Numbered from the stretch's first letter, positions 13,423 through 16,948 are shown. The stretch is 17,975 nt of DNA from Patescibacteria group bacterium (GCA_004321885.1 SCQK01000003.1:1-17975), one strand, 5' to 3'. A program made the numbers and translations. The notes: generated by a model from the letters alone, not told the origin.

Positions 13423-13447
13423 CTCCTCCCCTTTTTAAGGGGAGGAT
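13423..13447. repeat. family B hairpin holding the SD of the pilin gene
   Basis: CCTCCCC-TTTTTAA-GGGGAGG. On the minus strand the GGAGGA is 8 nt before the ATG. Confidence 0.6.
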
Positions 13448-13481
13448 TAAGGAGGGGTAATCCAGACAACATTATACCACT

Positions 13482-13512
13482 TCTTGATTTTTAAGGCAAA
13501 ATGGCGTAGAAT
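13482..13512 (+). promoter_or_regulatory. candidate promoter for tRNA-Arg
   Basis: TTGATT ... TAGAAT at 18-19 nt spacing, about 14 nt upstream of the tRNA. The -10 lies in palindrome GGCGTAGAATACGCC (13503-13517). Confidence 0.35.
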
Positions 13513-13525
13513 ACGCCACAATTAC

Positions 13526-13597
13526 GGCCCCATAGTTCAGTGGATAGAACACCAGCCTTCTAAGCTGGATACGTAGGTTCGATTCCTACTGGGGTCA
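13526..13597 (+). tRNA. tRNA-Arg (anticodon TCT)
   Basis: Hand-folded cloverleaf. Acceptor GGCCCCA/TGGGGTC with one G-U, D-stem GTTC/GAAC, anticodon stem CCAGC/GCTGG with loop CTTCTAA, T-stem GTAGG/CCTAC with loop TTCGATT, discriminator A. CCA is not encoded. Confidence 0.85.
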
Positions 13598-13617
13598 CAA
13601 AATACCCCACCCTTTAT

Positions 13618-13638
13618 CCCTCCCCTAAAAGGGGAGGG
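13618..13638. repeat. family B hairpin CCCTCCCC-TAAAA-GGGGAGGG in the tRNA-Arg trailer
   Basis: 8-bp perfect stem preceded by AAATACCCCACCC. The same trailer architecture follows tRNA-His. Confidence 0.65.
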
Positions 13639-13729
13639 GCAGGGGGTGGGGTAATTTTTATCCACAGCTACACTGTACAGTTATGATTTTTTAATATATA
13701 ATTTAGCGCACATAAAAAGGAGAAACACC

Positions 13730-13915
13730 ATGCCCATGCTCGTAGCGAGCGCCGAGCAAGCGCTCACGAACACGCAACGCCGCGACGCCAGGTCCCGCGA
13801 GAGGGAGCGCTCCCAACAGGAGCTCCGCGAACGGGAGCGCGCCGCGGCGGCAACGATAGCAATGAACCCGCGCGTGCTGGGCAAGCACGCGCACGTTCTT
13901 TCCACGAAAGCATGA
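13730..13915 (+). CDS. small Arg/Glu-rich protein (61 aa) encoded in a GC-rich island
   Basis: AAAAAGGAGAAACACC-ATG is a strong SD at ideal spacing. An AT-rich promoter-like TATATAAT lies upstream. The terminator at 13965-14006 lies downstream. Local GC is well above the window average, so overlapping minus-strand ORFs (13681-13974, 13703-14137) are taken as GC-driven artefacts. Confidence 0.5.
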   Translation: MPMLVASAEQALTNTQRRDARSRERERSQQELRERERAAAATIAMNPRVLGKHAHVLSTKA

Positions 13916-15350: not shown

Positions 15351-15354
15351 ATTC

Positions 15355-15822
15355 CTATTGCCTTCTCTCGTCCAGCCCCTGACTCTCGGGCTGGTAATTG
15401 GGCTGGATATAGACGCCTGACTGATTGATGTCTTCGTAGCGGTTTAGCGCCAGCTTGATGGCAAATGTGGTGATGGACCAGGCGGCCAAAATAATAATGA
15501 GCCCGATGACAGAATTAAACATCCATTTTTTCGCTTTAGTCACCTGCTCGTCGTTGCCCCCGGCCGTCATCCACAAAACTCCGGCATAGATGATAATGAC
15601 AACCATGAGCAGTCCCACCAGGCTCAACATAATGCGAATCATTCCGGCCGCGGTGATGCGCGGGTCCACTGGTTCGCCATAGCCCGCGCCTTTTTGGCCG
15701 CCGGCGGCCTGAAACTGGTTGCTGATATCCGCGCCCACGCTTTTATTTACGTCCGCGCTAAAAACAGGCGCCGCGAAAGCGAAGAGGGAAACGAGGAATA
15801 GTAAAATAATTATTTTACGCAT
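15355..15822 (-). CDS. VirB2/TrbC-like pilin family protein (paralog 1 of the tandem array)
   Basis: Signal peptide MRKIIILLFLVSLFAFAAPVFSA, then core LSLVGLLMVVIIIYAGVLWMTAGGNDEQVTKAKKWMFNSVIGLIIILAAWSI. Polar C-terminal tail with no Cys. Start is moved to the ATG at 15822, which overlaps the upstream stop as TGAtATG. Confidence 0.75.
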   Translation of the reverse strand: MRKIIILLFLVSLFAFAAPVFSADVNKSVGADISNQFQAAGGQKGAGYGEPVDPRITAAGMIRIMLSLVGLLMVVIIIYAGVLWMTAGGNDEQVTKAKKWMFNSVIGLIIILAAWSITTFAIKLALNRYEDINQSGVYIQPNYQPESQGLDERRQ

Positions 15823-15823
15823 A

Positions 15824-16339
15824 TCACCACAAATTGCTCCAAAAATTCTTGGCCGAGCCGGTAAAGCCCTTGCCAAAACCCTGCCAAAATCCGCCGGTCT
15901 GGGCCCCGGCGCTTTGGCCCACCTGCCCGGCGCCGGGCTCGGTGACCCGAAACACGCCCATTAAAATAAAGGCGGTCAGGCTATAGGCCGCCACCACGAT
16001 AATCAGGCCGACAACCGAAGAGCGGATAATTTTTTGCGCCTTTTCTACGCGCTCGTCATTGCCCCCGGCTGTCATCCACAAAATGCCAGCGTAGACAGTC
16101 AGTATCAAAAAAACAGTGCCTGTGAGCGACAAAATCACCCGAATTATCCGGCCTACATTTTCGGACAAGGTGGTGTCTGTCACGTTTGTTTCAAAACCGC
16201 CGGTGCCGGCCACATTGGAAGCCATCCCGCCCGGGCCAATGCCGATATCGGGCGCGGCCAAGACCATCGTGACGGATAAAAAGAATAGAGAATAGAGAAT
16301 AGAGAATAGAGAGACGAAGAAAATAATATAATTTTTCAT
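15824..16339 (-). CDS. VirB2/TrbC-like pilin family protein (paralog 2) with a Gly/aromatic-rich C-terminal tail
   Basis: MKNYIIFFVSLFSILYSLFFLS signal peptide, encoded by 4x GAATAGA. Core LSLTGTVFLILTVYAGILWMTAGGNDERVEKAQKIIRSSVVGLIIVVAAYSL. Start is at the ATG at 16339; the listed ORF start at 16447 is an upstream extension. Confidence 0.75.
   Translation of the reverse strand: MKNYIIFFVSLFSILYSLFFLSVTMVLAAPDIGIGPGGMASNVAGTGGFETNVTDTTLSENVGRIIRVILSLTGTVFLILTVYAGILWMTAGGNDERVEKAQKIIRSSVVGLIIVVAAYSLTAFILMGVFRVTEPGAGQVGQSAGAQTGGFWQGFGKGFTGSAKNFWSNLW
16283..16310. repeat. 4 perfect tandem copies of the heptanucleotide GAATAGA within the signal-peptide coding region
   Basis: 16283-16289, 16290-16296, 16297-16303 and 16304-16310 are identical. 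On the coding strand, (TCTATTC)4 encodes SILYSLFSI. Confidence 0.9.
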
Positions 16340-16343
16340 AATG

Positions 16344-16907
16344 CTATAAGGGTGAGCAATCCTGCGCGCAACTACTAACCGGCTGTCCCTGACAAGTGGA
16401 GGGACTTTGGCCGACATAACAAGTTCTACTTTCGAAAACGCCTCCATTAATTTTTACAACACAACAACCAGCATCATTTTGTGAACCGCTTGTCTGCTGA
16501 TTTTGTTGCTGTGACGCTGCGCCGCCGGATGAATTACTCCCGCCCATCTTCGTGGTCACAAAATACGTAATCGCGTAAGCCGACAAAGTGATAAACAAAC
16601 CGATAATGCAGGCCTTGATTATCTTATGCGCTTTTTCCACTTTTTCCTGCTCGCCCTGGGCCGTCATCCAAAGAATGCCGGCATAAACCATTAAAATCAA
16701 AAATAAAGTGCCCACCAGCGACAAAGCGGTTTTAACCACCGTGCCCACCGTGGTGGAAAGCTCTTTTTCCAGGCCAACGTCTCCGACCGCGTTGTCCAAA
16801 GTTTTCATGGCATTGCCCAATCCCTTTTGCGCCAGAGCATCGCCGGACAAAAAGAATAGCGAATAGAGAATAGGGAATAGAGAAACGAGGAAAATAATTT
16901 TTTTCAT
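16344..16907 (-). CDS. VirB2/TrbC-like pilin family protein (paralog 3) with a Cys-rich C-terminal domain
   Basis: MKKIIFLVSLFPILYSLFFLS signal, core LSLVGTLFLILMVYAGILWMTAQGEQEKVEKAHKIIKACIIGLFITLSAYAI. A Ser/Gln-rich linker leads to a tail with 6 Cys (CCVVKINGGVFESRTCYVGQSPSTCQGQPVSSCAQDC). Confidence 0.75.
   Translation of the reverse strand: MKKIIFLVSLFPILYSLFFLSGDALAQKGLGNAMKTLDNAVGDVGLEKELSTTVGTVVKTALSLVGTLFLILMVYAGILWMTAQGEQEKVEKAHKIIKACIIGLFITLSAYAITYFVTTKMGGSNSSGGAASQQQNQQTSGSQNDAGCCVVKINGGVFESRTCYVGQSPSTCQGQPVSSCAQDCSPL
16854..16881. repeat. degenerate heptanucleotide tract (GAATAGC GAATAGA GAATAGG GAATAGA) in the signal-peptide coding region
   Basis: Same position and register as 16283-16310 in the adjacent paralog. 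The two flanking ~60-bp gene 5' ends are about 85% identical. Confidence 0.8.
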
Positions 16908-16926
16908 ACATATACCCCTCTCATTG

Positions 16927-16948
16927 CCCCTCCCTTAAAAGGGGGGGG
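16927..16948. repeat. family B hairpin CCCCTCCC-TTAAAA-GGGGGGGG upstream of pilin paralog 3; contains a G8 tract
   Basis: G8 tract at 16941-16948. Lies 20-40 nt upstream of the ATG at 16907. Confidence 0.55.

Follow-up and report, generated by a model that had tools for sequence, protein, structure and literature searches.

The 17,975-nt stretch analyzed here (the window) is a single contig of a Patescibacteria genome (SCQK01000003.1), with a GC content of 48%, and copy counts for the window refer to that contig alone. It carries five G/C-rich hairpin elements, at 9432-9467, 13424-13460, 13603-13652, 14190-14223, and 16915-16961. These elements probably represent repeats of the BoxC/PIT/TM class, newly recorded in a Patescibacteria genome, which were inserted in this lineage and bring side effects at the level of the hairpin. 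From the evidence below we infer insertion as the polarity of the change, terminator action, and translation initiation that is independent of Shine-Dalgarno (SD) sequences. The first-pass annotation of this DNA had read the hairpins as built-in translational control or thermosensor-like elements of pilin and glycosyltransferase (GT) genes. The SD-like purine arm comes with the repeat itself, which argues against a dedicated translational switch. The eye-catching pattern would thus be explained without a new regulatory mechanism, and the BoxC/PIT/TM class would extend to the Patescibacteria, also known as the Candidate Phyla Radiation (CPR).

Element anatomy and class assignment

Exact matches to CCTCCCC-N3-9-GGGGAGG occur at 13425-13445 and 13619-13637 (two, against 0.01 expected). 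A relaxed hairpin pattern returns six matches at four loci (0.05 expected) and adds 9446-9467, 14202-14223, and 16927-16949. The hairpins therefore exist where they had been placed, far above chance, but they amount to five elements and not six, since the copy assigned to the tRNA-His trailer and that assigned to the GT leader are the same element. An nhmmer profile built from CPR-like copies elsewhere recovers precisely these five copies and no other place in the window. The Rfam covariance-model scan of the whole window returned three tRNAs only, and the weak scores that miRNA models gave on the palindromes are attributable to chance. All five copies lie between genes, with motif strands (copies 1 to 5) minus, plus, both, minus, and plus. 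One copy lies behind each of two tRNAs, two are in 5' leaders (one copy being shared between these settings), and one lies between convergent genes. The set comprises two intact single copies, one intact double, and two decayed copies.

Each copy is organized as a pyrimidine arm, a loop, a purine arm, a short loop, and a G-rich mirror of the purine arm. On the opposite strand, this flanking third segment reads ACCCC[A/T]CC. The window sub-family combines the homopyrimidine arm CCCTCCCC, the homopurine arm GGGGAGGG, a loop of 2-5 nt, and the mirror third segment GGGTGGGG or GGAGGGGG. The C-arm/G-arm stem of the earlier description is retained, but the elements are not simple hairpins: each of them has the third C- or G-rich segment at its flank, and the one behind tRNA-Arg is double. 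Both tRNA trailers do start with CAAA(A)TACCCC(A/G)CCC, and the shared trailer sequence 'AAATACCCC(A/G)CCC' recorded at first pass was a glimpse of this third segment.

A class II finder with ITxF-like published criteria (a stem length of 7 or more, no more than one mismatch, triads G·G-C, A·A-T, and T·A-T) identified four motifs with 9-11 triads in the window, namely copy 1 on the minus strand, copy 2 on the plus strand, and copy 3 on both. None occurred in 100 dinucleotide-preserving shuffles of the window. As a positive control, the same finder recovered the published TMECO pair in the hrpB-mrcB spacer of Escherichia coli (NC_000913), a pair that is unannotated in RefSeq. The class II arm definition covers complementary arms of 6-15 nt with at most one mismatch and a loop of 1-6(7) nt; copies 1, 2, and 3 fall within it, with stems of 9-11 nt and 0-1 mismatch. 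Copies 4 and 5 are degenerate, with the same layout and 3 mismatched triads of 9-10.

Copy 1 (9432-9467, minus strand; TCCTCCCCCT-ATG-AGGGGAAGGA-CAG-AGGAGGGGGT; 10 triads, 1 mismatch; nhmmer E = 2e-4) lies between the end of the MTAP gene (9376) and the terminator (9485-9510) of the convergent tRNA-Leu. An additional C-rich segment stands beside copy 1 at 9420-9431. Copy 2 (13424-13460, plus strand; TCCTCCCCTTT-T-TAAGGGGAGGA-TTA-AGGAGGGGTAA; 11 triads, 1 mismatch) was found by both the class II finder and nhmmer. Its complement forms part of the minus-strand mRNA of the pilin that starts at 13415, which reads CCCCTCC-TTAAT-CCTCCCC-loop-GGGGAGG, 9 nt, and the ATG at 13415. A predicted sigma-70-type promoter of this gene (13471-13499, minus strand; TTGCCT-17-TGgTATAAT; 10/12 in a consensus scan, extended -10) would place all of copy 2 within the 5' leader.

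Copy 3 (13603-13652; ACCCCACCC-TTTAT-CCCTCCCC-TAAAA-GGGGAGGGG-CA-GGGGGTGGGGT) begins 5 nt past tRNA-Arg. On the plus strand it reads CCCTCCCCT-AAA-AGGGGAGGG-GCAGG-GGGTGGGGT (9 triads, 0 mismatches), and an equivalent motif occupies the minus strand (10 triads, 1 mismatch), which makes it a double, nested palindrome. Its G-rich half is also a canonical G-quadruplex (G4) motif. A T5 run follows at 13655-13659 on the plus strand and, with the nested hairpin, would form an intrinsic-terminator-like end of the tRNA-Arg transcript. The limits on loop and stem in the terminator scan exclude this hairpin, and it is hence missing from that list. No U-tract follows copies 1, 2, 4, or 5. Copy 4 (14190-14223, minus strand; CTCTCCCCT-TTT-AGGGGAGGG-GCGG-GGGCGGGGT; 9 triads, 3 mismatches; nhmmer E = 2e-6) occupies the spacer from the end of tRNA-His (14185) to the ATG of the GT gene (14232). 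Copy 5, a decayed double (16915-16961, plus strand; CCCCTCTCA-TTG-CCCCTCCC-TTAAAA-GGGGGGGG-ATAAA-GGGTGAGG; nhmmer E = 1.4e-13), lies within the 63-nt spacer between the stop of the pilin at 17564..16971 and the start of the pilin at 16907. The reported G8 run is present at 16941-16948 and arose through the replacement of an A by G in the purine arm. As for the slippage suggested there, a Logan assembly made independently from this sample shows the identical C8/G8 run with no length heterogeneity visible, a comparison that is silent on the population level.

The BoxC/PIT/TM repeat class has been known since the 1990s, and Hoyne and colleagues reportedly described PIT elements of E. coli and other Proteobacteria in 2000. 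Holder et al. 2015 (PMC4666352) treat the former BoxC and PIT elements as 'intrastrand triplex motifs' (TM), with the E. coli consensus TMECO being CCCTCNCCC-N3-6-GGGNGAGGG-N3-GGGNGAGGG. The 23 TM copies of E. coli K-12 are always intergenic and strand-unbiased and include five inverted pairs, copy number differs widely among close relatives, and G/C-rich TM-type motifs are abundant in cyanobacteria too (PMC4666352). TMECO forms a triplex in vitro, which is unsupported in vivo, and is tied to locus rearrangement (PMC4666352).

The window elements resemble TMECO in their C-rich arm, loop of 3-6 nt, purine arm, loop of about 3 nt, and mirror strand with T or A opposite A-T. They are likewise 34-37 nt long, multi-copy, strictly intergenic, arranged in inverted pairs or double forms, and present in one lineage while absent from relatives; the finder treats E. 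coli and window copies alike. Every architectural trait of the class (arms, mirror third segment, multiple copies, intergenic position, patchiness in relatives) is found in them. The differences lie in the arms, which carry one interruption (CCCTCCCC/GGGGAGGG/GGGTGGGG) in the window and two (CCCTCNCCC/GGGNGAGGG) in E. coli, in loop 2, which is often ATAAA (5 nt) in the window sub-family, and in the host. Moreover, several window copies abut starts or the 3' ends of tRNAs; in E. coli, the distance of the copies to open reading frames (ORFs) ranges from 10 to 310 nt and shows no trend. Judged by sequence layout, the window elements are a different sub-family of the known BoxC/PIT/TM kind. Since purine-motif triplexes cannot form in RNA (PMC4666352), the conserved mirror strand points to a family shaped at the DNA level and not in mRNA.

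Two further repeat types invite comparison. Chashchina et al. 2021 (PMC8044849) described repetitive elements with a G4 motif and a C-tract in Methanomicrobiaceae, which are also interspersed intergenic repeats. Their parts are GGGGTGGGG, a GCA-type loop, GGGGAGGGG, and a CCCCTCCCC tract that is complementary. In vitro, these elements adopt hairpin, triplex, or G4 in competition with one another, and about half of them lie between tail-to-tail genes (PMC8044849). They differ in their archaeal hosts, in longer G-runs, and in a reversed order of third strand, purine arm, and pyrimidine arm, in which the C-tract follows the G-run block on its 3' side. REP/BIME elements are similar in being short, multi-copy, intergenic hairpin repeats whose RNA form can stabilize 3' ends or attenuate expression, as a side effect of where they lie. 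However, REPs have no third mirror strand, bear a GTAG-type 5' tetranucleotide, and are mobilized by RAYT transposases. The window elements are flanked by AATA, ATTA, or GA, and no RAYT- or transposase-like ORF occurs within the window.

Distribution in relatives and other genomes

Comparison with syntenic relatives bears on the polarity of the change. Four loci (L241, L243, L244, and L245; 69 kb) retain the order PNPase-NYN-S15-pilin / tRNA-Arg, tRNA-His, GT / convergent pilin cluster, and synteny around the window copies is intact relative to them. Neither a TM nor a C-arm/G-arm hairpin occurs in these 69 kb, and no hairpin is conserved upstream of the GT gene or the first pilin. In the relatives, the ATG of the GT gene lies 2-4 nt past the 3' end of tRNA-His. 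The corresponding window spacer is about 42 nt longer, and alignment identifies the excess as copy 4. The tRNA-Arg flank and the first-pilin leader of the relatives are AT-rich, without hairpin and without SD. The simplest reading of this absence at four syntenic loci is that the window copies are lineage-specific insertions into AT-rich spacers.

The short distance from tRNA-His to the GT start can be followed in L241 (80-160), L243 (9193-10003), and L245 (9770-10003), for comparison with 13526-14234 of the window. This tRNA/GT layout, kept at four loci, and an ORF start about 27 nt past tRNA-Arg in L243 suggest that tRNA and mRNA are co-transcribed and that maturation of the tRNA 3' end would leave near-leaderless mRNAs. 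The syntenic relatives also offer clean before/after pairs (tRNA-His-ATG versus tRNA-His-TM-ATG) for testing the effect of a TM insertion on expression.

Occurrence beyond this lineage was surveyed in one genome per species with the pattern CCTCCCCT-WWW-AGGGGAG, which covers the hairpin only and gives abundance as a lower bound. At least 118 blocks were obtained, spanning Clostridia, sphingomonads, Bacteroidaceae, Vampirovibrionales, Chitinophagaceae, and Gammaproteobacteria and, among the matches listed, also Desulfobacteraceae, Planctomycetia, cyanobacteria, and eight Patescibacteria. Among the matches listed, GG[A/T]GGGG lies within 45 nt on one or both sides in 70 of the 116 hairpin-selected sites, and the third segment is in mirror orientation 78 times and in direct orientation 21 times across the 116. 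The base facing the A-T pair (again among the matches listed) is T in 37 cases, A in 41, and C in 3, as expected from T·A-T and A·A-T triads. The notion that ACCCC[A/T]CC serves as an anti-SD decoy was rejected, the mirror-repeat reading accounting better for the A/T alternation. In some lineages, loop 2 has grown into an additional G/C hairpin, which in many cases is capped by C(UUCG)G. An RNA function deduced from this UNCG-looped hairpin in Clostridia and sphingomonad copies was likewise discarded; it illustrates the expandability of loop 2 only.

Metagenomes add to this picture. The 21-mer CCCCACCCTTTATCCCTCCCC of copy 3 recurs in at least 120 metagenome stretches with GC contents of 0.33-0.70. 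Low-GC metagenome contigs (L207, L208, and L213) share the AATA flank and a double like copy 3, and a near-identical double with this flank is present in a Magasanikbacteria metagenome-assembled genome (MAG; L061). A T-run follows two of these near-identical doubles, T7 in L061 and T4 in L213. No tRNA adjacency of the elements was found in other low-GC loci, which speaks against a general link to tRNA trailers. The sub-family GGGGAGGG-ATAAA-GGGTGGGG is thus common, down to a 21-mer, to contigs of 33%-70% GC, and this sharpens the question of how the motif originated and moved.

Some metagenomic copies are embedded in larger structures. In high-GC (about 0.6) soil contigs, including L126, L132, L138, L139, and L146, a TM double lies inside a longer palindromic unit. 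The outer inverted repeats of this composite are GAGCATGATCCCGAAAC ... TTTCGGAAAAAGATCATGCTC, and with its many copies the unit has the look of a miniature inverted-repeat transposable element. Dense arrays of whole and fragmentary TM copies with AACCCCACCTGC repeats and several hairpins per 300 nt occur in L034, L051, and L095, which belong to a MAG labelled 'Rickettsia typhi' (CAMCVL01). That label looks doubtful for a repeat-rich freshwater MAG.

Leader hairpins, translation starts, and alternative explanations

The predicted free energies of the hairpins are -18.7 kcal/mol in the leader of pilin 13415, -12.1 kcal/mol in the GT leader, -22.1 kcal/mol in the spacer upstream of pilin 16907, and -22.6 kcal/mol for copy 1. 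Copy 3, in the tRNA-Arg trailer, reaches -44.6 kcal/mol (z = -5.5). The hairpins end 9 nt (13415), 8-10 nt (14232), and 19 nt (16907) from the start codon. According to the first-pass annotation, the 3' arm is the sole SD-like sequence in each of these leaders and is sequestered in the folded state. For pilin 13415 the first part holds and the second is borne out by prediction, with a probability of being unpaired, P(unpaired), of 0.0005 for the SD-like 7-mer and an opening cost of 15.0 kcal/mol. The GT leader conforms roughly, its SD-like arm GGGGAGAG being predicted to pair, at an opening cost of 13.7 kcal/mol. Neither part applies to pilin 16907, where 22 nt separate the inner arm from the ATG and a properly spaced SD-like sequence (7 nt) is provided outside the inner hairpin, by the outer G segment GAGAGGGG. 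The masking proposed at first pass thus holds as a prediction, and deletion of the C-rich segments lowers the predicted opening cost to 8.9 kcal/mol for pilin 13415 and to 2.3 kcal/mol for the GT gene.

In RNA thermometers such as ROSE and fourU, the stems are weak, contain mismatches, and open at 30-42 °C, and the elements are conserved alongside their genes. Copies 2 and 4 resemble them in having, 8-10 nt ahead of the start codon, a leader hairpin whose 3' arm is SD-like. In contrast, the window stems are perfect G/C helices of 7-10 bp, predicted to remain closed to 65 °C, and are absent from orthologous leaders. Thermodynamic prediction gives P(unpaired) values for the SD 7-mer of 0.0005-0.002 (13415) and 0.14-0.15 (14232) between 10 and 65 °C, a flat profile that argues against thermometer behavior. 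The thermosensor proposal accordingly finds no support. The same applies to built-in translational control, given four syntenic relatives without the hairpin and a GGGGAGG arm that comes as a constant part of the BoxC/PIT/TM class and is not an SD to which a hairpin was added.

Translation in this contig appears to depend little on SD sequences. No SD-like sequence is present within 22 nt of the start in 10 of the 19 window genes, and the strongest SD-like sequences of the contig are those brought by the TM repeats. Start codons have a predicted P(unpaired) of 0.76 after copy 2, 0.49 after copy 5, and 0.31 for the GT gene after copy 4; the surroundings of the first two are A/U-rich. As the orthologues of the affected genes also have no SD, initiation here is presumably largely SD-independent, and GGGGAGG probably belongs to the repeat and not to the ribosome-binding site of the gene.

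These observations fit a model in which a dispersed, non-coding, G/C-rich repeat would have inserted into AT-rich spacers of this Patescibacteria lineage. Its effects on neighboring genes would be by-products of a very stable C-arm/G-arm RNA hairpin that forms in any through-transcript. Behind tRNA-Arg, the double copy and its T5 run would terminate transcription or form a barrier at the 3' end. In the leaders of the pilin and GT genes, the hairpin would stand a few nt upstream of an A/U-rich, largely unpaired start and permanently hide its own SD-like arm, and translation would most likely continue through the SD-independent route already used by most genes of the contig and by the orthologues. 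SD masking would be a by-product, possibly one that was exapted.

The position of copies relative to start codons was assessed by asking for an ATG that opens an ORF of at least 60 codons 3-14 nt past the purine arm, against control windows. Among the matches listed, this applies outside Patescibacteria to 3 of 116 sites, no more than in control windows. In metagenomes, the TTTAT sub-family is on a par with its controls, at 0/15 for low GC and 7/81 for high GC, also among the matches listed. Start adjacency is therefore not a family property and may be a peculiarity of Patescibacteria, so that the enrichment upstream of starts anticipated at first pass fails outside this group and is suggestive within it.

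Several points weigh against insertion of a known repeat with incidental effects. Among the matches listed, 3 of 8 Patescibacteria sites have the hairpin 6-13 nt ahead of an ATG-initiated ORF, as opposed to 3 of 116 sites elsewhere (Fisher p = 0.003), and 2-3 of the 5 window copies are start-adjacent as well. Start-adjacent cases mostly (about 7 to 2) read C-third / C-arm / G-arm / ATG in the mRNA. Adjacency and orientation together hint at selection, or at an insertion preference, at ribosome-binding sites; alternatively, adjacency could reflect very short spacers that barely fit an element of 35-50 nt. The window arms CCCTCCCC/GGGGAGGG/GGGTGGGG also deviate from the strict TMECO consensus because they carry one interrupting base per arm and not two. 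Triplex formation or any expression effect of the window sub-family is a prediction from sequence, the copy census draws on one 18-kb contig of the source genome, and the choice of insertion over loss in relatives rests on parsimony, since GT protein identity to the nearest available relatives is 36-40%.

The same evidence bears on the alternatives. That the elements are SD-sequestering control devices, in which the hairpin hides the sole ribosome-binding site of the pilin and GT genes until temperature, a helicase, or an RNase opens it, we regard as unlikely. The SD-like arm is predicted to be paired, with opening costs of 15.0 and 13.7 kcal/mol set against an SD:anti-SD gain of -8 to -10 kcal/mol, the spacing of 8-10 nt at 13415 and 14232 is SD-like, and both the orientation bias at start-adjacent sites and the contrast between Patescibacteria (3/8) and other groups (3/116) among the matches listed favor such control. 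However, predicted accessibility is constant from 10 to 65 °C, the element is missing at four syntenic loci whose genes manage without SD or hairpin, and SD-less genes make up 10 of 19 in the window. In addition, pilin 16907 has its well-spaced SD-like sequence outside the hairpin arm, two of the three leader copies are decayed, and the same element occurs behind tRNAs, between convergent genes, and in many phyla away from starts. A related view, which we consider improbable, holds that a Patescibacteria TM repeat was exapted as a portable leader module that supplies an SD-like arm at 6-13 nt, pre-masked by its own pyrimidine arm. Here, a second anti-SD-like C segment would lie upstream, and the recipient genes would be otherwise SD-less or nearly leaderless. 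If true, the repeat would impose a constitutive brake, or a helicase- or RNase-dependent switch, on pilin and envelope genes and would preferentially land or be retained at ribosome-binding sites and tRNA 3' ends.

Two other explanations assign the primary role to transcript ends or to DNA structure. It is quite doubtful that the elements are primarily intrinsic terminators or REP-like 3'-end protective hairpins that insulate transcription units. Copy 3 suits this role, with its nested hairpin of -44.6 kcal/mol and T5 directly after tRNA-Arg, as do the doubles followed by T7 in L061 and T4 in L213, and copy 1 lies between convergent units; yet a U-tract is missing from copies 2, 4, and 5, which precede start codons within presumed transcription units, and most copies in other genomes have no T-run. 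PIT elements, moreover, had neither promoter nor terminator activity in E. coli according to Hoyne and Maher, as cited in PMC4666352. Still more remote is a DNA structural switch, in which a triplex, hairpin, or G-quadruplex on single-stranded DNA regulates promoters or replication or forms a selected recombination hotspot. In its favor, a mirror third segment that places A or T across from the A-T pair agrees with purine-motif triads of DNA that are impossible in RNA (PMC4666352), copy 3 has a canonical G4 motif in its G-rich half, TMECO forms triplexes in vitro and marks rearrangement-prone loci (PMC4666352), and archaeal analogues alternate between hairpin, triplex, and G4 (PMC8044849). Against such a switch or hotspot, synteny around the window copies is intact compared with the relatives.

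Neighboring genes and other repeats of the window

Two plus-strand tRNAs, neither with an encoded CCA, were called by both ARAGORN and Rfam, namely tRNA-Arg(TCT) at 13526-13598, with copy 3 downstream, and tRNA-His(GTG) at 14113-14185, followed by copy 4 and the GT gene. ARAGORN also places tRNA-Leu on the minus strand at 9511-9593. The GT ORF (14232-15350) is MGDG-synthase-like. Paralogous minus-strand ORFs of the T4SS_pilin family (PF18895) occupy 13059-13415, 15355-15822, 15824-16339, 16344-16907, and 16971-17564. Between the two plus-strand tRNAs, a 61-codon, Arg/Glu-rich ORF (13730-13915) without a Pfam match lies in a local G+C-rich island (13674-14000), with a promoter-like site at 13674-13702, a good SD, and a terminator-like hairpin at 13870-13892. 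In L243, an ORF begins about 27 nt past tRNA-Arg; it encodes a different protein of 176 aa, unlike the product of 13730-13915.

A second repeat family consists of TGTCATTCCNGC...GCNGGAATGACA palindromes, with 8 half-sites against 0.31 expected, at 2400-2479, 4867-4944, 9680-9738, 12978-12999, 14055-14103, and 17715-17738. One pair has arms of 37 nt that match perfectly, the start of S15 is overlapped by one, and one is situated shortly before tRNA-His. A cousin of this family (GTCATTCTGAGCAAAGCGAAGAATC...) is found in the pilin leaders of the relatives. Overlapping long inverted repeats (GGCTCCATAGTCCCCGCAGGGGCTGTGGAGCC and partners; predicted free energy of about -38 kcal/mol), unrelated to TM, fill the leader of pilin 17564 at 17565-17662.

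The DnaA-box-like sequence TTATNCACA occurs at four sites (0.47 expected), at 129-137 (minus strand), 788-796, 9415-9423, and 13658-13666. Two are perfect TTATCCACA, one lies directly 3' of TM copy 3, and two are part of a longer repeat, CGGCTTTTGGCAAG-N6-GTTATGCACA (769-797 and 9397-9424). Finally, a terminator-like module, AAAAATCGCCTC-N-GA-N-AGACGA followed by T-runs, is repeated at about 2533-2560, at 9476-9510, and also at about 870-900; the copy at 9485-9510 serves tRNA-Leu.

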